A stretch of 64,000 nucleotides of DNA, taken from assembly GCA_951406725.2 (NCBI GenBank), contig OX597818.1, positions 70,184,001-70,248,000 of the forward strand, given 5' to 3'. Positions 5,500 to 61,260 of the stretch are shown here, piece after piece; the stretch's first letter is position 1; each line of letters starts with the position of its first letter. This stretch comes from Octopus vulgaris. Its lineage: Eukaryota. The notes beneath the pieces are model-generated. The model was not told where the DNA came from, searched no databases, and worked only from the letters and a program-made list of their open reading frames with translations. Made by a program: the position numbers and the translations under genes.

Positions 5500-5877
5500 A
5501 GGGCGACCTGCTGTGCTTGAGGAGATCTATTGAGTCAAGTACATCAACATCAAAGAAATCCAATGGAAATTGTTGTTGTGATACCTGTGCCGGTGGCACG
5601 TAAAAAGCACCACCCGGACATGGCCAATGCCAGCGCCACCTTGACTGGCTTCCGTGCTGGTGGCATGTAAAAAGCACCAACCAATCTTGGCCATTGGCAG
5701 TCTCCCCTGGCACGGAAAAAGCACCCACTACACTCACGGAGTGGTTGGCGTTAGGAAGGGCATCCAGCTGTAGAAACACTGCCAGATCAGACTGGAGCCT
5801 CCTGGCTTCCCAGACCCTGGTCGAACCGTCCAACCCATGCTAGCATGGAAAATGGACGTTAAACGATGATGATGATG
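5500..5877 (+). mobile_element. RTE 3' UTR/tail copy (3 hairpin units)
   Basis: GTGCCGGTGGCACGTAAAAAGCACC units, GGAAGGGCATCCAGC block and (GAT)n. Confidence 0.85.
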
Positions 5878-8495: not shown

Positions 8496-8536
<41 letters not shown>

Positions 8537-8544
8537 TCATCTTC

Positions 8545-8728
8545 ATCATCATCATTGTTTAACGTCCGTTTTCCATGCTAGCACACGTTGGATGGTTCGA
8601 CCTGGGTCTGGGAAGCCTGGAGGCTGCACCAGGCTCCAGTCTGATCTGGCAGTGTTTCTACAGCTGGATGCCCTTCCTAACACCAACCACTCCGTGAGTG
8701 TAGTGGGTGCTTTTTACGTGCCACTGGC
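8545..8728 (-). mobile_element. RTE tail copy, 5' truncated
   Basis: Reverse complement of the shared tail with one hairpin unit. Confidence 0.85.
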
Positions 8729-10504
8729 ATACATACATACATAATCTAATGTTTGTGTGTGTGTGTGTTTTATGCTTTATGTAGGTGTGCACATAAAGCC
8801 TAATGGTTGAGACATTCACTTCACAATTACAAGGTCCAAGGTCCGACCACACTGCATGGCAACTCAAACAAGTGTCTTTTACTAACAGCTCAGTAAAACT
8901 ACACCAACACAAACTATATAAAGCAGTTAGAGGGATTCATCATCATCATAATCGTGATTGCATATGTTTATTTAAAGATACAGCTTTGTCTCAGAGTGTA
9001 ATCTTGAATTTGATTTTGAATTGCTTTAAGGACACATATGACTGTGGTACACTCAGCCTCTTACAGTTTGCTTCATTGAGAAGGTAACCCAGTTGATCGA
9101 ACAACTGGATGCTCCTCATAGAAACTGATGGAGATCCACTATTTGAGTGTGTGTGTGTGTGTGCCTACGAATCGTAATCTGGTTATTAATTTCATTACAA
9201 AGTGTGCTTAGGTGTAAGAAAATGTTTAATATCAGTTTGACATGTTCTCTTCAAAGTAGAAATGAGGAAAGCTGTGATAATTAGCCGACTTGATTACATG
9301 TTTCCAATAGACTTCATATCACATTGGATCTGGAAAAGGTGCTGTCAATGCTTTCATTGCATATATATGTGTACGTGTGTTAGCGTGTGTGTGTACATCT
9401 CTCTATCAATCTGTCTTTTTATCTTTCTGTCTGTGTGACAGCGGTTGTTTAGAATTTTCTCTTTATAGCATTAGATGTTACTGTATGTGTGTGTGTGTGT
9501 GCATGCACCTACACACACATATATCCACACATACAGCCATAATATATTATATGTGTATACAGAGAAGCACACCTCAATATAAATATTAAATTAAGGTTGT
9601 TTGAAATCAAATTTGATAGCGGAACTTTTGCTGATGGGGAAGCACAATACTGTGAGTCAAATTTATTATGGAATATAGACATATGAATGTGTGTGTGTGT
9701 GGGTGTGTGTTAGAGAGACAGACAGACAGACAGAGACAGAGTGAGTGCACATAAGTGAGTGAATGTGTATGGATTTGTGTGTATATTTGTGTATGTATAT
9801 AGAAACACACACACACATTTCTGTTTGAGGAATGGTATGTCTCGAGGCAAAGGAAACAAATAAATATTGGTTTGTTACTGTTTGAATAAAATATGTCAAA
9901 GACTCACTGTGAGATGAAACCCACACCTTTTGTAACCATGACAGACGTTTTGCCATTGGATCAAAGCAATCTTTTGAACTTCTCAAGCCATTTGAGAAAC
10001 TTTATTCTTACCAACGAAAATTCTATGTTGTTGCCATCATAAGAATTTAGAATCTTCAAGAATGTGAAATAATTCTTTTTAGATTAAGATGTAATCTGTA
10101 GAGATCAGTGAATGTAACAATGTATTTGCAATTGATTGGAATTTTGAGTAAGGTTCCATTTGGCAACTTGAGTAAGCTGACTGAGAAAAGGCTTTGAAGA
10201 AGGTTGCAAAAGGTTGCATGCAGTAGAGTCAATCATTTGCAGACACATTGAAAGAAACTGAGGCAGGAAATTTATTCTTATCTTAGATTTTATTAAACAG
10301 TTACAAAATTTTCTGCAACTAAAAGTTGGAAATAGATATAAATATAAGTTTTGATATAAAGTTTTTTGTAGTAGATCTGGAGGTCTGCTACTAAGTTGTG
10401 GACAACTTCACTGTCTGCAAGTGGCAAAGTGAAAAATAGTTAACTCTTTAAAAGTTACTGAAAAAAGAGGATTTTTTTAGGGCTGTCTTAAAGTTAAGCT
10501 AGGT

Positions 10505-10740
10505 TAGCACCACCTTGACTGGCGTCCATGTTGGTGGCACGTAAAAAGCACCCACTACGCTCACGGAGTGGTTGGCATCAGGAAGGGCATCCAGCCATAG
10601 AAACACTGCCAGATCAGACTGGTGCCTGGTGCAGCCCCCTGGCTTCCCGGATCCTGCTTGAACTGTCCAACCCATGCTAGCATGGAAAGCAGACGTTAAA
10701 CGATGATGATAATGATGATGACGGATGATGATGATGATGA
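10505..10740 (+). mobile_element. RTE tail copy, 5' truncated
   Basis: One hairpin unit, conserved block and (GAT)n. Confidence 0.85.
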
Positions 10741-15584: not shown

Positions 15585-16620
15585 CTATGCGGAACTGGTG
15601 CAGGAAGCAGCCCGGGTCTTTGCAGTCACAGCATATCTCCAGAGATCTCGGTCCTTCGCCATTGCCTCAGTGAGGCCCAACACTCTGAGGTCATGCGTGA
15701 CTACCTCATCCCATGTCTTCCTGGGTCTACCTCTCCCCCTGATACCTTCAACTGTTTGGGAGTGGCACTTCTTCACACATCTCTCCTCATCCATCTGCAG
15801 TGCATGACCATACCATCGCAAGCGTCGCTCTTGCACACCACATCTGATGCTTCTTATGTCCAGCATTTTTCTCGGGGTGCTTACCCTCTGTCGTGCACGC
15901 ACACTGACATTACACATCCAGTGGATCATGCTAGCTTCATTCCTTTCAAGTCTACGCATGTCCTCTGCAGTCACAGCCCATGTTTCACTACCGTGAATCA
16001 TGGCAGTTCGCACACATGCTTCATACAATCTACCTTTCACTTTGAGCGAGAGACCCTTTGTTGCCAGTAGGGGTATGAGCTTTCTGAACTTTGCCCAGGC
16101 TATTCGTATTCTAGTGGTGACACTCTCTGAGCATCCACCTCCACTACTAACTTGGCCACCCAGGTAGCGGAAACTATCAACTACTTCTAGTTTCTCCCCC
16201 TGGAGTGTGATGGAATCTGTTTTCTGAGTATCTGTGGTGTCTATTGTCCCTGTGCATCTGCTGCACATGAAAGCTATCTTATCAGTTAATTTCCCTTTGA
16301 TGTTGCTGCACCTCTTATGCGTCCATAGCTTACACTGGGTGCATCTTATGGAGTTTCTACCTACACCTTTCCTACAGATCGAGCAGGGCCACCTGCCCGA
16401 GGGTGTGTGTGCTCTGTTCGCCTTTCTGCTTACTATAACTTTGGTCTTTGCTACATTTACTCTAAGGCCCTTTGATTCTAACCCTTGCTTCCACACCCGA
16501 AATTTCTTTTCTAGTTCCGGTAGTGAGTCTTGCAATGAGAGCCAGGTCATCAGCATAGAGGAGCTCCCAGGGGCAACCTGTTTTGAATTCCTCTGTTATT
16601 GCCTGGAGGACTATGATGAA
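15585..16620 (-). mobile_element. RTE LINE, 5'-truncated ORF (RT from motif 4/5 onward, with inserted PHD finger, thumb and C-terminus)
   Basis: PWELLYADDL at ~16540-16575, one frameshift, then the 323-aa ORF with LRVNVAKTKVIV, a C4HC3 finger, LEVVDSFRYLG, HGSETW, RLRWYGH and GRGRPRKTW. Confidence 0.95.
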
Positions 16621-21299: not shown

Positions 21300-21530
21300 T
21301 AAGCACCATCCGTCCGTGGCCATTTACCAGCCCCGTATGGCACCTGTGCGGGTGGCACATAAAAAGCACCCACTACACTCACGGAGTGGTTGGCATTAGG
21401 AAGGGCATCCAGCTGTAGTAACACTGCCAGATCAGACTGGGCCTGGTGCAGCCTTCAGGCTTCCCAGACCCCAGTTGAACCGTCCAACCCATGCTAGCAT
21501 GGAAAGCGGACGCTAAATGATGATGATGAT
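21300..21530 (+). mobile_element. RTE tail copy
   Basis: Last hairpin unit, conserved block and (GAT)n. Confidence 0.85.
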
Positions 21531-21560
21531 GCTTCTAATAAATGGGGTTCACCGACCAAG

Positions 21561-21955
21561 CAGGCATGGTTATGTGGTAAGAAGCTTGCTTACCAACCAC
21601 ATGGTTCTTGGATCAGTCTTGCTGTGTGGCACCTTGCGCAAGTGTCTCCTACTATAGCCTTGGCCTGACCAAAGCCTTGTGAGTAGATTTGGTAGATGGA
21701 AACTGAAAGAAGCCCATTGTATGTATGCGTGTGTGTGTGTGTGTACGTGTGTGTCTATGTTTGTCCCCCCACCATCGCTTGACAACCAATGTTGGTGTGT
21801 TTATATCCCCATAATTTAGCAGTTCAGCAAAAGCAACCGATAGAATAAGTACTAGATTTACACAGAAAATGTCCTGGGGTCAATTTGTTCTACTAAAGGC
21901 AGTGCTCCAGCATGGTCACAGTCAAATGACTGAAACAAATAAAAGAATAAAGAAT
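21561..21955 (+). mobile_element. tRNA-derived SINE family A, long form
   Basis: tRNA-like head, CCTTGCGCAAGTGTC, central (TG)n, second half ending GACTGAAACAAATAAAAGAATAA. Confidence 0.85.
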
Positions 21956-22882
21956 AATTAAAAAGAGAAAAAGGATATATATATATGTATATATATGTGA
22001 GAATAAATATTTATTTATGTCTGTCTATATATACTGATATACATGTACACATGAATATATATTATGTAGATGGGGTTAAAATCTGAACTGTGTCATCTTG
22101 AAGCATGTCTGCTTATTTCTGTATTCCAAATCCTTAGGAAGATGTTATATTTGTCTGAAGTTTTCATAAGAGTTGAAAATACTGGACAATATTTTGTGCA
22201 GAGTAATATCATCAAAACAGGAGATCAGGAAATTTTTTGGTATCATTGTGTTTCATTTGCTAACAGGAGTTACTAATTTGTACATGTTGTAGAAAACATG
22301 TAGGATATCTCTTATCAGAAATTCTAGAGACAGAGAATCAAATGAAAAACTTTCCAATCTCCTCTTTTGCTATGAGCAAATATGAGTGTGTGTGTGTGAG
22401 AGTCACTTCATTTCATTTAATAACTAGTGTTTCCCAAGCTGGATTGGACATGTCACCACAATCCAAGTCTTAAAAGACAGAGACCACAGACAGAGGTTCT
22501 TACGTGTCATTCAGGTGGGTTTCTAAGGCTTGATACCCTTCCTATTCCTAATTACTTTATGGATTGTACTCTTGATGATTTTCTTGTAGCACCAGTTGTG
22601 TTTGTGTGTGTGCTGCTAGTCATCTTTGCCTGTATCCAATACTGCCAATGTAATTATGAAAAGTTGTGATAAACTCTCCCAATATTCCACAGAACAATTT
22701 AAGCAAATACATAGCAGAATTCTCTCCCACCTTTCAGTAAGAATTAATAGATTTAAAAGAATATCTAATGTCCAATTCGTTACTGCTGTGACATTGCTTC
22801 CATCAAGTTGACAGCAAAAATTGCAGTTTCACTCCATGTCTTCCTCTCAAAATAAACATACATATACGTAGATGTATGTATA

Positions 22883-23804: not shown

Positions 23805-24146
23805 CAGCCAGGATCCCTGGTCTGGTGGTACGTAAAAAGCACTATCCGACTCGTGGCCGATGCCAGCGCCGCCTCGACTGGCTTCCGTGCCGGTGGCACA
23901 TAAAATACACCAATCCGACCGTGGCCGTTGCCAGCCTCGCCTGGCACTGTGCAGGTGGCACGTAAAAAGCAGCCACTACACTCACGGAGTGGTTGGCGTT
24001 AGGAAGGGCATCCACCTGTAGAAACATTGCCAGATAAGACTGGAGCCTGGTGCAGCCTTCTGGCTTCCCAGATCCCCGCTCAAACTGTCCAACCCATGCT
24101 AGCATGGAGAACGGACGTTAAACGATGATGATGATGATGATGATGA
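23805..24146 (+). mobile_element. RTE tail copy (3 hairpin units)
   Basis: Same units and tail as 888-1620; CpG-rich, so probably young. Confidence 0.88.
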
Positions 24147-24371
24147 TATATATATATATATATTTTGTGAAATAGAAAGATGAATAATCTTATTGCAGAT
24201 TAATCAAAAGTTTAACCGATACCTTGGTAGCAAAAATCACAGTAGAAGACAGCACGGTTGGAGGTACAACCATATGGTGTTGCAACCATGCATTGGTGTG
24301 GATAATTGAATTTTAATATTATTAGTGAATTGAAGAAATGGAGTTGAACGAAGATTGAACAGAAATCGTTT

Positions 24372-24464
24372 TATTGCATTCTACACGTGTTTCGAAAGCC
24401 ACAATTTACCAAATTATGATTGAATAAGGAGACCATATTGTGTCTTTCTCTTCAGGAAGAAATA
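24372..24464 (-). ncRNA. Type I hammerhead ribozyme (PLE type), left arm
   Basis: Minus strand TTC-CTGAAGA-GAAAGACACAAT...ATTGTGGCTTTC-GAAA-CACGTG-TA-GAA. Confidence 0.8.
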
Positions 24465-24574
24465 GGAAATCCGTTGGCAAAAACAAAAACAGAACAGAGG
24501 CGCAGCAAAACAAATCGAACGAGGCTCCTAAGAGCCCATGGCCAAACTGTTTTTGTTTTTGCCAACGGATTTCC

Positions 24575-24667
24575 TATTTCTTCCTGAAGAGAAAGACACA
24601 ATATGATCTCCTTATTCAATCGGAATTTGGTAAATTGTGGCTTTCGAAACACGTGTAGAATGCAATA
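24575..24667 (+). ncRNA. Type I hammerhead ribozyme (PLE type), right arm
   Basis: Stem I TATT..TTC/GAA..AATA; core CTGAAGA (24584-90); stem II GAAAG-a-CACAAT/ATTGTG-g-CTTTC; GAAA (24646-49); palindromic stem III CACGTG; GUA cleavage triplet ending at 24657; AATAAA follows. Confidence 0.82.
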
Positions 24668-24717
24668 AAACGATTTCTGTTCAATCTTCGTTCAACTCCA
24701 TTTCTTCAATTCACTAA

Positions 24718-24770
<53 letters not shown>

Positions 24771-29582: not shown

Positions 29583-30714
29583 CTATCTACCACAGAAACA
29601 ATATGTCGATATGACCAGGCTAAATGATATAATATAGAAAGCAGCCTCAGAGGCCACAAAGGAAGTTGGATACTCCCTCAAACCCATCCAAACAGGAGTA
29701 TCACCACCCAAACAAATCCTATGGATAAACAATATCCAGAAAAAAATAGAAAATAAAAGAAAGGGTCTCTCAATCCTTAATGAAACTAGTAGACAATCAG
29801 TACTACTAAGCAAGAAAAGGGGATTTAAAATACTATTACGAAATAACTACCAAAGGATGACAGAAATACCTACTTTGGAAGCAAGGAAAACTAATACAAA
29901 TAACCACAAAACACAAACAAAACAAAAAACTGTTTTCAGTCTTTAAAGAAGCTGACAAATGCAAAAAGGAAGTCAAACTGCCTGACAACTATGAAGAAAA
30001 AGAAGAAACAACAAAAGCTGTAAAACAGCTGAATTCCAAACTAAAACTGGAACAGCAACGGATCATGATAAAACGATGGCAAGAAAAGCCTCTACATGAC
30101 AGATATTGGGTTAAGCTAAACAGAAAAGAAATAGACAAAGCAAAATCCCCAAAATGGCTGAGAAGCTCAGGACTCAAAGCAGAGACTGAAGGATTTTTAA
30201 TTGCAGCACCAGACCAAAGCCTCCCCACCAGAAATCACCAAAAACACATAATGAAAAGAAATACAACAAGTAACTGTAGAATATGTGGTGATGGAGAAGA
30301 AACAATAAATCATATTGTCTCTGGCTGCCCAGTCCTGGCAAAGAAAGAATATATTCACAGACAAGACAGAGTTGGGATCTATATTCAATGGAAGCTATGC
30401 CAACACTATGGAATAACAACAGAAAAAAAGATGGTATAGACATATGCCTGAAAAGGTCAAAGAAAATGGGAAAGAAGCAAACTCTGGGATATACCAATAC
30501 ACACAAACAGAAAAATCAGGGACAATTCTGGATATAGTTGTCAGAGATCACCAAGGAGAAAAATGCTTTCTAATCGATGTATCAATACCAACAGATGACA
30601 GTGTTTCTCTAAAAGAAACTGAGAAACCTTCAAAATACAAAGATCTGGAAATAGAGGTAACTCGAATATGGAATCTAAAAAACAAACAATTCCTATTACA
30701 GTAGGTGCATTAGG
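29582..30714 (+). mobile_element. R4/Dong-clade non-LTR retrotransposon (RLE endonuclease), RT deleted, frameshifted
   Basis: WQEKPLHDRY...LKAETEGFLIAAPDQSLPTR...CRICGDGEETINHIVSGC (CCHC)...RQDRVG...LDIVV...FLIDVSIP...EK.SKYKDL...PITVGALG. An N-terminal PPKQILWINNIQKKIENKRK segment lies upstream, with no RT in between. Confidence 0.9.
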
Positions 30715-40457: not shown

Positions 40458-40972
40458 AGGCATAAATGTGTAGTAAGAAACTTGCTTCCACCCACGTGTT
40501 TCTGTGTTCAGGCCCACATCATGGCATCGTGGGAAAGTATTTTCTACTAAAGCATCAGACCAATTAAAACCTTGTGAGTTGATTTGGTAAACAGAAACTG
40601 AAAGAAGTCTGTCTTATATATATATTCAGTGGTTTGAGCATTGGGCTCACAATTATGAGGTAGAGAGTTCAATTCCTGGACCAGGCTGTGTGTTGTGTTC
40701 TTGAGCAAGACACTTTATTTCATGTTGCTCCAGTTCACTCAGCTGTACAAATGAGTTGCAACATTACTGGTGCCAAGCTGTATCGGCCCCTCTGCCTTTC
40801 CTTTGGATAACATCGATGGCCTGGAGAGGGGAGGCTGGTATGCATAGGCAACTGCTGGCCTTCCATAAACAACCTCACCCAGACTTGTGCCTCGGAGAGG
40901 AACATTCTAGGTGCAATCACATTGTCATTCATGACCAAAGAGGGTCTTTACCCTAAATATATATATACACAA

Positions 40973-41004
<32 letters not shown>

Positions 41005-41255
41005 ATGCACATATATATATGTATGTGGGTGGGTGTGTCTTTGTGTCTGTGCTTGCCCCCCACCATCATTCCACAACTGGTGTTGGTGTGTTTACATCCT
41101 TGTAACTTAGTAGTTTGGCAAAAAAGACTGATAGAATAAGTACCAGGCTTTAAAAAGAAATAAGCTATGGGGTCAATTCATTTGACTAAAAGTTCTTCAA
41201 GACAGTGCCTCAGCATGGCTGCAATTTAATAACTGAAATAAATAAATAAATAAAA
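40458..41255 (+). mobile_element. SINE family A (long form) interrupted by a CORE-like SINE at ~40628-40955
   Basis: The first half ends GAAAGAAGTCTGTC-(TA)n. The inserted SINE has B-box GAGTTCAATTCC and TTCTTGAGCAAGACACTTTA. The second half resumes after (CA)n/(TG)n. Confidence 0.75.
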
Positions 41256-41439
41256 GATATAAAAAAATGACAAAAGATACCAATTCTTCCTTTTTCAAAA
41301 CTAAATACCAGAAATTTCTTTTCCTCCATTTAATGTCTATAAACCATCAATTATTCTCTCTTTTGAGTTTTAAGGCAGCAAAAATAATTAATTTTTTTCT
41401 TCCAAGCAGCTCAATGTCCAGAACGTGTTGAATGTGATT

Positions 41440-44304: not shown

Positions 44305-44601
44305 TGGCTCCAGTGCTGGTGGCTTGTAAAAGGCACCATCTGAACATGGCAGATGCCAGTACCCTCTGACTGGCCCCTTTGCTGGTGGCACATAAAAAGA
44401 ACTTTCAGAAAGTAATTGATGCCAGGCCCACCTAACTGGCTCCTGTGCCACTGGCACCACTACACTCTCAGAGTGGTTGGCGTTAGGAAGGGCATCCAGC
44501 TGTAGAAACATTGCCGGATCAGATTGGAGCCTCCAGACCTCAGTCAAACCATCCAACCCATGCCAGCATGGAAAACAGACGTTAAACGATGATGATGATG
44601 A
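44305..44601 (+). mobile_element. RTE tail copy, older (3 units)
   Basis: Diverged hairpin units, conserved block and (GAT)n. Confidence 0.8.
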
Positions 44602-45429
44602 TCATCATCATGAAGACAGAGCTGTGTGAATAAGTTTACATTTCAAGTTCAACACATGGTATGGTACTTAGTGTAATTCTTCTATTGTAGTTCTTGTGCT
44701 GGCCAATTCAAAGGTAGCGGAATTTGGTGAAAGGAAACTGTATAGAAATGTGTGTTTGTTTACAATGTGGTTAATAGAATTGTGTGTGCACACACGTGTA
44801 TATATATGTGTGTATGTGTGTGTGTGTTTACATTGATAGGAACCTATGTTTATTTTGTGTCCCTTTATATCCAAACCAGTGGCTGAAACTTTCAATAAAC
44901 AGAAGCTCAGAATTGTTGACGCATGGCATAAACTACCTGCCTTTAGTTGTTAGCTGTCAGGACAAATATTCCCTGTTTCCCAAATTCGCCAACAGATAAT
45001 GGAACCTCATGTGACCCCTGGCCTTACTCCCATCAAAACATTCAACCCATACTAGCATGGAAAACTGATGGTAAATGATGATGATGATGGTGGTGGTGGT
45101 GGCAACGACGATGATGATGATGAGGAATTCTTGACATACTTATGGTCCCTTACCTCTTTGCTGTTCACTTTTCTTGATTTTTCGTTTTATTCTGTTGACT
45201 GTGGATGTCCATTGTGGCTTTCATTACTCTCTTTCTTTACTTGACTCAAATGTCCCCTTTCTGTCTCCCCTTTCATCCTTTTCTGATGAGTTGTAGTGCA
45301 CTGGAGCCCTGTATATAATATGTTGAATAGTTGTTGTTGTATTTGTGGGGGTCGAATTTGACACTCAGCAGAGTCCATCATGAGGATCAGCCCAACACCA
45401 AACTTTAACAAGCCAGGCAATGTTCCTCT

Positions 45430-45665: not shown

Positions 45666-45794
45666 AGACAACAACTACTGGGTGAGGACATGTGCTTTTA
45701 CTATTCTAGATAATTCTGGATCTGTGAGATTCTTTGATTGGCCTTGGTGAGGGTTCTTCTGTATCAGACACATATTTTGTATACTACTTTTTTA

Positions 45795-45994
45795 TTCTTT
45801 TATTTGTTTCAGTCATTTGACTGCGGCCATGCTGGAGCACAGCCTTTACTCAAAGAAATTGACCCCAAAACTTATTCTATCAGTCTCTTTGGTCAAACAC
45901 TAAGTTACAGAAATATAAACACACCAACACCAGTTGTCAAGCGATGATGGGGGGACAAACACAGATACACAGATACAGAAACATATACATTTAT

Positions 45995-46061
<67 letters not shown>

Positions 46062-54914: not shown

Positions 54915-55230
54915 TATTATTATTATTATTATTATTATTATTGACATCACACAGTATACAATAATAATAATAATAATAATTGTTATTATTATTATTGACA
55001 TCACACAGTATACAATAATAATAATAATAATAATTGTTATTATTATTATTATTATTATTTACTCAACTGAAGGACCTAGATTTTTTTATTATTATCATTA
55101 TTATCTCTCTCCCTCAGATTTCCTCATCATTTGTCAAAGCATCCAAACAATAAGGAATCTGGTGAATCTAGAATTGTTGTGAAACTAAAAACACATTTTG
55201 AAAGACAGAAAATAGTTTTACACCAATTCA

Positions 55231-55590
55231 CAGATGGGCTTCTTTCAGTTTCTGTTTACCAAATCCACTCACAAGGCTTTGGTCGGCCCAAGGCTATAGT
55301 AGAAGATACTTGCCTAAGGTGCCACACAGTGGGACTGAACCCGGAACCATGTGGTTGGTAAGCCAACTACTTACCACACTGCCACTCCTGCACCTATTTA
55401 TATACATATATATATATATACACATACACGACGGGCTTCTTTCAGTTTCCGTCTACCAAAGCCACTCACAAGGCTTTGGTTGGCCCAAGGCTATTGCAGA
55501 AGACGCTTGTGAAGCTGATACACAGTGAGACTGAACCTGAAACCTTGTGGTTGGGAAGCAAACTTCTTACCACACAGCCAGGCCTGCACC
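55231..55590 (-). mobile_element. Two tandem SINE family A copies
   Basis: 55231-55394 and 55427-55590, same orientation, separated by (TA)n. Confidence 0.88.
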
Positions 55591-56015
55591 TTGGTTTGCT
55601 TGTATAATCTTGTATAATATTTCTGTTGAAATAATGAGGCTGTGTTTTAATCCAGTTTGGAAAATTATGAAGAATTCAGTAAAATAACTTGTTGATTATT
55701 AAACTAATGTTTGGTACATACGATGGCATGAAATTTGAATGGAAGTTTTTAATTTAGTTGACATTGAAACAGGAAATTTTTATCGAAGATCCAGGAATGG
55801 TTTTGGACAGGTTGGAATGAAAAAGGACAAACCTTTGAGAAATTTATCATCAATAACGATGAAGTTAATAATGCAAATAATTACAATAGCCACAGCTCAC
55901 CATTAAAATTAATGAGAATATACATTGCCTTGAATTGTACTGACTCTGGCTTTGTGATTAAAAAGTTTGCATCTCAACCATATGACTTCAAATTCATCTT
56001 ACTCTGTAGCATCTA

Positions 56016-58457: not shown

Positions 58458-60879
58458 CAAGAGAGAGGGGGGGAGAGAACATCATATGTTTATACTTTAT
58501 TGTTGTTGTTGTTGTTATTATCATTATCATTATTCAAGCACATAAGCACATATGCATCATCAAACATCAAATCATAACAGACACAAAGAATATTTCTGAG
58601 TGAGCTAGATGCATAAATTTGTTTATGCGTATATATGTGCAGGCACGAGTGTGTGTGTGTTGATGAACACTTGTGTGCTTACACGTTGAAACCTACAAGC
58701 TTACGTACACATTCCCACACAATTACGCCATGCCAGTGCAGTTAGTGAAAGTAGTGATGCAAACGGTGTAGTAAAGCCTTATCATTGCCTTTGATGCAGT
58801 GATGGCAGCCTTGTTAATATTCCAAAAGACTTCAGAGTGCCATTGCAAACAACAACAACAACAACGCTGCCAGTAACAACAACAACAACAACAACAGCAG
58901 CTTGCATCAAGTAGATCGTAATCAATTGCCACACAAGCTCATTTCTCAATGGCTTTTATCACACAGAGGAAGGCTGTTAGTGTAGAATTACATTAGCAAT
59001 CACTAAACAAAGAATGCTGTGAAATAAAAGACGAGAAATAGTCAGTAAAATTTTGGTACTTTAAAAGTTTCCTTCCAAAGGAACTTCACATTTTGACATT
59101 TAAAGAACTTAACTGAGGATGGATTCTGCTGAAATTGATATTTACAAGCAGCTGTAGAATTATGGAGGCTGTTTGCCCCATCTGCAGCAACATAACCAGG
59201 AAAATTTATAAAGTTGTATGTAATTGTGAGTGAATGCATGTGTGTGTGTGTGTGTATGCACGTGTGTGAATGCGAGTGTATATGTGTTTCCTTTCATTAG
59301 TTGATTTAGTTATGTATTATGACAATTTCTAATTTAATCTTGGGTAGGGCAAAATTAAATTTTAAAAAAATAATAATAATCAAGTTACAATGTCTAAATA
59401 AAATTTCATTTACTAGATATATTAAATTGTTGGAATTGTAATGGTTGCCATTTTTCTTGTTGTTAAAATTAATAATAATAATGATGATAATAATAATAAT
59501 AATAATGATATTATTATTATTATTTTTATTATTGATCAATTTCGATGATACAATAAATCTTTCGCAATGTTTATTTGTTATTTGCATTTCTGCTTTTCAC
59601 TTCATCGATAATAACAGAAAATTTGAAATAAATTTATAAACGAAGAATTAATGGATGGTTTCAGGCTTACGCTGTTTATACAAGCTGACATAAATTACTG
59701 CTTAATTCTTGGAACTCATTGGTTACAAATACGCACACACACACACACACACACACATGCAGATAGGTTTATATTAATATACCTAAAATCCTGGCATATG
59801 TAAACATATAAATATGCATTTTATCCAAATGTATTTTAAAATTTTGGCTACACTTTTATAATGATTTTATTTCCTCTTCGTTTGTATAAAATTGCAATAT
59901 TGTGTCTTTGTAATATTTGCAATAGGGAAGGCTGAGAATGGCAGAAGCTGTAATATGACAGAATCAGTGCCTTCTGGTATTTAATGCTGTCCCTTTATGT
60001 TATGAGTTCCTATCAATATCATTTTGCATCCTTCTGGCATGGAGAAGATAAGTCTGTAAATACACTTAACAGAATCAACTCATCGTAAAACTTCCAAGTG
60101 AAAAGTGCTTAAAATAAAGCATCACAGCTTATTTCAGCAATTATAAAATATTTTGGCCATTCTTTGTTGTGTGAATTCTTGGCCAGGCACCTACATAGCT
60201 CTGTGATTAAGAAGTTTGCTTTCCAACCCCATGGTTTTCTTTGGTCCTGAGCTGCAATGGAAGTCACTCGTGCAAGGTGACATGCACAGGATTGAACCTG
60301 GAACCATCCACTAACCACTCTGCCAATTTGCTGCTATGGATTGAGACTCTTTGACCTCAGAAAGATAAAAGACTAAGTTGACATTGACAGGATTTGAACT
60401 CAGAGCCAAAACAAATAATTGTTTCTAATTCAGGCAGAAATCCATCAGTTTTGATGGCAGGATTGGCCCGAATATTTGACTGGTACTTTCTGGTCAAGAG
60501 TGGAACGACTTTGATCATGGTTAATCAAGGGGAACCTAGAATAAAAACACATCAATGTAACCACTACAAGTCAATATCCTGCTAAAAATAGTAATGAAAT
60601 CCTTCTCAGTTACACATTACTATCTTTAAAAAAAAACAAGGCAGACGCTGGGCCCCTGATATTCAATAAGATGTTGAGCATTTAAGGGATGCAAATTAGT
60701 AGCTCCAGATTTCTGTAGTTTCTCAAATTGTAGAGTATATAAGCAGGTTGGCTGCTTGCTTCTCTGCGATTGGTCAAATTGAGGAACACATTGCTCACAA
60801 AAGCCGAACCACAGTTAAGAACAGATTAAGGCTTTTCATTTGCTTTAGAGAGAAAGAACTAAACTTTCCCTGATTATAT

Positions 60880-61260
60880 CTTTTACTTGTTTCAGTAATT
60901 AGGCTGTGGCCATGCTGGGGCACCACTATGAAGAATTTTTAGTTAAATGTATTGACCCCAGTTCTAATATTTTAAAGCCTGGTACTTATTCTATCAGTCT
61001 CTTTTGCCAAACTGCTAAGTTACATGGATGTTACACCATCACCAGCTGTCAACTGGTAGTGGGGAGACAAATACACACACACACATGCATACATACATAT
61101 ATGTGATGGGCTTCTTTCAGTTTCCGTCCACCAAATCCAGTCACAAGGCTTTGGTTGACCCAAGACTTTAGTAGAAGACACTTGCACAAAGTGCCACGTA
61201 GTTGGAGTGAACCCAAAACCATGTGGTTGGGAAGCAATTTTCTTACCTTACAGCCATTGC
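60880..61260 (-). mobile_element. SINE family A, long form
   Basis: Homologous to 21561-21955. Confidence 0.8.

Follow-up and report, generated by a model that had tools for sequence, protein, structure and literature searches.

EN+ Penelope-like elements (PLEs) are described in PMC8557442 as inserting together with an inverted 5'-truncated copy, with a tail on one side only and with (TA)n tracts as targets. In the supplement of that paper, Penelope-13_HM, a member of the Hydra clade, is given as having a hammerhead on either strand and a 5'-truncated copy in inverted orientation. In Pen2a of Adineta vaga, the inverted pLTR shares 15 bp with the direct one at their overlap, and head-to-head junctions were ascribed, by way of proposal, to self-priming on the antisense template (PMC3846280). 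The mechanism by which the PLE junctions arise is a point on which PMC8557442 calls for work. Concerning the ribozymes, metazoan PLE hammerheads are reported to need a dimer and to cleave weakly even then (PMC4209133), and an Anolis PLE hammerhead to require the protein of the element (PMC11167929). According to the supplement of PMC13282606, the genome of O. vulgaris contains 190 PLE families, which together account for 6.83% of it.

The locus described here lies in a 64-kb stretch of the Octopus vulgaris genome (the window). Like the inverted copies of Penelope-13_HM and Pen2a, it consists of a long and a short copy placed head-to-head, with a short overlap at the junction and an extension on one side only. 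Like those of the EN+ PLEs, it occupies a (TA)n target, where no duplication can be discerned, and carries an outward-facing type I hammerhead on each strand. The features of EN+ PLEs that were matched comprise the type I hammerhead close to the 3' end, of which helix III is palindromic, the 5' truncation, the head-to-head inverted copy, the one-sided extension (longer than the published 30–40 bp) and the presence of (TA)n at both ends, in this case at one locus. Unlike in Penelope-13_HM and Pen2a, the truncation is such that no ORF remains. The extension measures 150 nt compared to 30–40 in EN+ PLEs, and the overlap 6 nt compared to 15 in Pen2a.

The hammerheads resemble the PLE hammerheads with a small palindromic helix III presented by Cervera and de la Peña (2014, PMC4209133): they have the type I core and the G10.1–C11.1 pair, a palindromic stem III and loop 3 capable of self-pairing, and a monomer which is not predicted to fold. 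A second likeness is with the animal non-LTR retrozymes as characterized in PMC7229834 and bioRxiv 10.64898/2026.07.22.740005, which are also non-coding, low in GC and present in high copy number with a type I hammerhead. The retrozymes are, however, head-to-tail tandems, whereas the present copies face each other head-to-head and four runs of short contigs showed no tandem joint. An identity with Hydra-1_Obim was considered and rejected by eye, as the hammerhead differs; a faint likeness between the 3' end of the long copy and the 5' end of that consensus was left out of account. The hammerhead family was not found in print in the literature searched, and motif searches of the supplements of PMC8557442 and PMC13282606 (5,371 characters for the latter) gave no match; repeat libraries may include it. 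It is probably one of many such families, and we did not find it described. From the whole of the analysis, we are fairly confident that the locus is a single, heavily 5'-truncated insertion of the hammerhead end of an abundant PLE into a (TA)n microsatellite, accompanied by the inverted 5'-truncated copy typical of PLEs. In this statement, we infer the membership of the repeat family in Penelope.

Architecture of the locus and of its hammerhead motifs

The inverted repeat was made of two arms of 179 nt each, at positions 24314–24492 and 24547–24725, 98% complementary and separated by 54 nt. The arm comparison upheld what a previous sequence-only reading of this DNA had stated, namely that the arms have three differences, all in distal stem II. 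The mismatches were exactly three (24606/24433, 24622/24417 and 24623/24416) and fell in distal stem II or loop II. The same reading had placed the start of the element at 24314 and had treated the 54-nt spacer as a separate part. Both assignments were wrong: the left copy goes approximately 150 nt further, to the (TA)n tract at 24146–24163, and the spacer belongs to this copy, public contigs being continuous over 24170–24552.

The long copy (24164–24552, minus strand) corresponds to 389 nt of the 3' end, a pLTR-like region, of a high-copy hammerhead-bearing repeat, and is 5'-truncated. It was delimited by contig depth and by the (TA)n border and comprises the former left arm, the spacer and 150 nt of what had been regarded as left flank. 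Its left end, 24164, was read from the (TA)n border, the contig alignment covering position 24170 onward. The short inverted copy (24547–24725, plus strand), defined by the inverted-repeat comparison, is 179 nt long and stands head-to-head with the long copy. A 6-nt microhomology, CTGTTT (24547–24552), is common to both copies at the junction, and family contigs match up to its last base. The complement of CTGTTT at 24487–24492 is a single occurrence within the long copy, and the probability of a 6-nt overlap by chance was approximately 3e-4 at the local composition. The one-sided extension, or tail, of 150 nt (24164–24313, minus strand) is present in the long copy only; its contig depth is on the level of that of the arms and it is unmatched in the right copy. 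Symmetric terminal inverted repeats are absent, as the left copy goes 150 nt past the inverted repeat. The palindrome loop (24493–24546, plus strand) is ordinary long-copy sequence judging from contig depth. It contains a 5-bp hairpin (24523–24536), which in the predicted fold helps to close the fold-back.

The left border of the insertion is an (AT)9 tract (24146–24163), the left part of the target microsatellite. The right part is a (TA)n tract of about 25 units (24720–24768), with which the short copy overlaps at its AT-rich end, and the right end of the element does adjoin (TA)n, as had been noticed from the letters. No target-site duplication was readable within (TA)n. The absence of coding capacity, also announced by the sequence-only reading, held for the 389-nt copy, which is devoid of ORF. 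There were no further copies of the hammerhead element elsewhere in the 64-kb window and no tandem copies in it. The direct pLTR (partial tandem) organisation was absent at the locus, and the public contigs are short. Neither a GIY-YIG domain nor a PLE RT was found in the insertion or in a Pfam scan of 136 of the 148 stop-to-stop ORFs of at least 70 aa in the window; the 12 left out were located, by eye, in the SINE-like repeat or in simple sequence. The scan produced two matches, both in unrelated LINE fragments.

The element was inserted in the tail region of a SINE-like repeat (23812–24145, plus strand) to which it is unrelated. We take this repeat, the tail of which is (GAT)n, to be an octopus SINE, and it has further copies in the window. 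These copies, in which an internal unit measures about 63 nt and the tail is again (GAT)n, were numerous, for example at 23812–24163, 1100–1627, 5516–5877, 8517–8729, 10529–10721, 21301–21536 and 44306–44611. A full-text literature search with a motif of the repeat gave no match. A 336-aa open frame at 15585–16595 (minus strand) showed a PHD-finger Pfam match (E = 2.5e-5) and presumably represents something close to the C-terminal part of an RTE-type LINE. At 29861–30439 (plus strand), a 192-aa LINE fragment showed a zf-RVT match (E = 1e-5), slightly under the curated cut-off, and we assume its resemblance to be with Dong/R4-type elements. A second dispersed repeat family was represented by partial copies in both orientations (21560–21977, 40458–40625, 41008–41279, 45788–45997, 55219–55591 and 60874–61256).

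One type I hammerhead motif was present in each copy. That of the right copy (24575–24667, plus strand) has its core at 24584–24590 and a predicted cut after A24657, and that of the left copy (24372–24464, minus strand) a predicted cut after A24382. Either arm contains CUGAAGA, GAAA and GUA with a G10.1–C11.1 pair, and both motifs agree with the core CUGANGA / GAAA / UH. In each, the 12 positions of stem II give 11 pairs, stem III is spanned by an 8-nt palindrome, and stem I is bulged. The pattern match thus agrees with the two hammerheads proposed from the letters, with their full core, 11-bp stem II, bulged stem I and palindromic stem III. The downstream AAUAAA of that proposal is present, but it lies partly within the 3' strand of stem I, and approximately 200 nt of the left copy follow it, so that its role as a poly(A) signal finds no support.

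These two were the only hammerhead-pattern matches on both strands of the 64 kb and, as copies of one motif, they were counted as one for the chance estimate. Among 100 first-order Markov controls made from the window, eight matched a loose hammerhead pattern; a stricter one, set after the motif was seen, was matched in one of 500. The comparison with hammerhead models, suggested by the sequence-only reading, had a divided outcome: the sequence pattern was matched, whereas Rfam gave no hammerhead at the gathering threshold or at E ≤ 10. Over the whole window, no Rfam family reached the gathering threshold. Around the locus, 33 matches were obtained with E up to 10, with no hammerhead among them; the best of the 33 were to miRNA-hairpin models, far below thresholds, and these were set aside as matches that any hairpin might give. 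That Rfam misses the motif may be due to the long stem II and to its position in a palindrome.

A constrained fold with the three helices around the core and helix I open was possible, at −10.9 kcal/mol for the right motif and −6.8 kcal/mol for the left one. The monomer hammerhead fold was situated above the minimum-energy fold by 4.5 (right) and 5.7 (left) kcal/mol, and in the predicted fold the first stem I pair of the monomer had a probability of 0.003. Self-pairing of the stem III palindrome amounted to −10.3 kcal/mol, which fits the dimer requirement of metazoan PLE hammerheads. The distance from the hammerhead to the 3' end of the long copy was about 220 nt. At position 24376, the majority letter of the family (62–80% of the depth in three large runs) converts a U–C mismatch of stem I into a U–A pair; read by eye against the predicted fold, stem I with this letter is composed of 3 bp, a one-base bulge and 6 bp. 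Stem I thereby appears to be under constraint in the repeat family, and this is the best independent support for the idea that the fold matters.

The repeat family in public contigs

Part of the 24170–24720 interval was contained in 20 of 24 runs, with six organism labels and one metagenome label, and the best share was 0.56. Contigs were aligned on 24170–24575 for four of the 24 runs (X1, X2, X5 and X10), all of short contigs, X1 being read to approximately 76% and X2 to approximately 80%. A wastewater run with a share of 0.29 is among the runs left out and was not counted as evidence. The contig depth given below is a sum over contigs and not a copy number.

The depth was continuous and very high over 24170–24552 in all four runs, indicating that the supposed left flank and spacer form one repeat with the left arm. 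The depth of the arms reached 1e5–1e6 in the three large runs; in X5, the bins from 24170 to 24547 ranged from 127,876 to 792,606. Beyond 24314 the depth was unreduced, and this position is therefore not a dominant end of the family. Contigs 23, 24, 32 and 15 matched up to 24552, and three X2 contigs ran past 24552 into other letters. Indel variants occurred across the family. A same-strand joint that goes back to an earlier position was not seen in the four runs, the contigs of which are short.

Other copies of the family ended at or near 24548–24552 in X10 (records 15 and 16, 24453–24552). One such end in X10 was joined to a (CT)n tract, and a 416-nt contig of the same run with a copy end in this place also contained an opposite-strand piece ending at 24213. 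The recurrent ends at 24548–24552 may indicate that truncation takes place preferentially here, or that the element naturally has its 5' boundary here. Loose contig ends were also visible before 24412–24418 and behind 24524, corresponding to at least one diverged subfamily with another stem II region and another sequence near the junction. This subfamily would be useful for a covariation test if full copies were obtained.

On the junction side (24562–24575), the depth was 0 in X1, 0 in X2, 47.5 in X5 and 0 in X10. The proposal that the same junction exists at many loci, for which the test was set beforehand, found no support: junction-side depth was present in one run of four, with 47.5 compared to 1e5–1e6 for the arms. 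Had the palindrome been amplified, a difference as large as three to four orders of magnitude would hardly be expected. An opposite-strand joint of another kind, from 24213 to 24552, was observed in one X10 contig. The locus looks like a one-off insertion and not like an amplifying palindrome. The X5 contigs at 24562–24575 appear to span the junction, as they fit in one place only. One X5 contig on this side showed a one-base deletion at 24561 which is missing from the window, and this favours a real allele over an assembly fold-back. The palindrome is probably not an assembly artefact.

Origin of the head-to-head copies

We propose that the locus was formed in a single insertion event by snap-back of the cDNA. 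In this model, the PLE endonuclease would nick the (TA)n tract and the reverse transcriptase would prime the cDNA at 24164, as expected from PLE biology. The cDNA, corresponding to the plus strand of the window, would halt at 24552, the end position which is observed. The six bases at its 3' end would then snap back on 24487–24492 of the same strand, through the microhomology observed here and a fold which is predicted. From this point, the cDNA would be copied backwards over 173 nt to the AT-rich patch at 24314, before a presumed jump to the other end of the (TA)n tract. Extension of the folded end, by copying 24486 back to 24314, would produce exactly the right arm. The second strand would presumably be filled by host repair. 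The outward-facing hammerheads would be a by-product of these steps, one per strand, without selected function at the locus. Taken alone, the cDNA snap-back is a route to which we give a slight preference, and the view that a cDNA 3' end snapping back is the general origin of head-to-head junctions in PLEs seems to us about evenly balanced.

The minimum-energy DNA fold of a plus strand ending at 24552 pairs the last 6 nt with 24487–24492 (P = 0.48–0.66), and small helices within the loop help this pairing in the predicted fold. Among 273 possible ends of the plus strand, five showed P ≥ 0.4, 24552 being one of them; the rate was similar for the opposite strand, with six of 280 ends. The total energy of the fold-back was ordinary (z = 0.31), and the position of 24552 among the top five is largely due to the 6-nt overlap itself.

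The letters of the arms provide information on their template. The two arms are identical at sites where they carry a family-minority letter, the other letter representing 92–94% at 24399, 62–80% at 24376 and 50–88% at 24428 in the three large runs. Where the arms do differ, at three sites, the family letter is present in one of them every time. Shared minority letters, together with the family letter in one arm, indicate one template lineage for both arms. From the arm divergence (3/179) and the rate implied in PMC13282606 (0.065 at 18 My), a rough age of 1.5–2.5 My can be estimated. Some observations go against the proposed origin. The extension of 150 nt exceeds the 30–40-bp tail described for PLEs, and stem II is longer than in most of the PLE hammerheads listed in the supplement of PMC8557442. 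The recurrent copy ends at 24548–24552 could, in place of a random truncation, correspond to the 5' end that a short element naturally has. In pattern scans, neither metagenome contigs nor viral contigs yielded a related locus, and no RT or GIY-YIG ORF was connected with the family.

The same structure could have been obtained by two target-primed reverse transcriptions on opposite (TA)n strands, starting at internal RNA positions equivalent to 24164 and 24314, with annealing of the cDNA 3' ends via the 6-nt overlap. An identical junction would be expected, and the Anolis PLE protein, according to PMC11167929, cuts and extends both strands and starts at internal RNA sites. However, the minority alleles common to both arms would then imply that both RNAs came from one source locus, and 24314 is not a dominant end in the family, since the depth is maintained beyond it. 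In addition, the start sites given in PMC11167929 are separated by a 30–40-bp tail and not by 150. We consider such a double priming rather unlikely.

About as unlikely, in our opinion, is a parent that would be short, non-autonomous and hammerhead-bearing, similar to a retrozyme or a SINE, and would depend on PLE enzymes for its movement; the locus itself would still be a one-off inversion. The 389 nt without ORF, the indel variants across the family and the copies ending near 24548–24552, one of them joined to a (CT)n tract, would suit such a parent. Animal retrozymes have also been proposed to derive from PLE pLTRs (bioRxiv 10.64898/2026.07.22.740005). On the other hand, head-to-tail tandems would give the same-strand joint that was not seen, the 389-nt copy is missing a second hammerhead, and three X2 contigs extend past 24552, compared to retrozyme monomers of approximately 170–400 nt (PMC7229834).

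The inverted arm may also have been added later to a plain single copy, by DNA-level fold-back repair of a break near (TA)n. The microhomology and the arms identical by descent suit any fold-back synthesis. This later repair is improbable, as the duplication is restricted to sequence of the element and both ends lie in (TA)n, like in documented PLE insertions.

An assembly fold-back artefact is very improbable given the three arm differences, with private changes in each arm, and the X5 contigs to the right of the junction, among them the one that lacks a base, in spite of a near-perfect palindrome adjoining microsatellites, a best run share of 0.56 with no contig spanning the whole stretch, and the trouble that PLE inverted structures are noted to cause in assemblies (PMC8557442).

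Ribozyme activity and meaning of the locus

In read-through RNA of either strand, the duplex was predicted at approximately −334 and −341 kcal/mol, with hammerhead stem probabilities of about zero. The fold prediction is in line with the initial idea that read-through RNA would be locked as a duplex. It speaks against the accompanying idea that transcripts started in the spacer would give free ribozymes, since no stem I is predicted for RNAs that begin in the loop (P of about 0). The motifs being on opposite strands, one transcript never has both, and a cis dimer of the kind such motifs need (PMC4209133) is therefore lacking. Both hammerheads are most likely silent at the locus, as far as the models indicate, because the monomer would misfold, there is no same-strand dimer partner and the read-through RNA would be fully duplexed.

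The sequence-only reading had suggested that the palindrome itself is an amplifying non-autonomous element, a 'retro-MITE', in which the duplex gates the ribozymes and ADAR or Dicer act as regulators. The very stable read-through duplex would indeed abolish the hammerhead fold, and the family is represented in the putative RNA run X10. The junction side was nevertheless at background depth in one run of four and absent in the three others, the joint seen in X10 was a different one, and the structure is asymmetric. Furthermore, both arms carry the minority letter that weakens stem I, RNAs initiated in the spacer are not predicted as hammerheads, and X10 had no contig on the junction side, a lack of cover which is no proof of silence. 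An amplifying palindrome is in consequence highly doubtful.

In X10, which we guess to be RNA, five T>C places and one A>G place were found. Their interpretation as RNA editing was rejected, as the T>C changes at 24414, 24441 and 24463 were also present in X1, which is probably DNA. A further reason for not counting the X10 variants as editing is that their contigs represent other family members. The invariant adenosines of the hammerhead core would themselves be struck by promiscuous A-to-I editing. The antisense version of the 179-nt arm contains 68 A compared to 52 A. It is conceivable, with a very small probability, that read-through hairpins from such loci, in a lineage where A-to-I editing is intense, are edited on the A-rich antisense arm, that the duplex unzips and that the hammerhead cuts the host transcript. 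If true, this would be an editing-gated ribozyme born from a by-product of retrotransposition, and such loci would possibly be numerous given the size of the family.

The two back-to-back hammerhead motifs are real, and their arrangement is one already described for PLEs. The locus is most likely one of the standard outcomes of PLE insertion, and as a locus it matters little. Its value concerns the formation of the junction in head-to-head PLEs: the present one is compatible with the cDNA itself having snapped back, and the abundance of the family would permit a statistical test.
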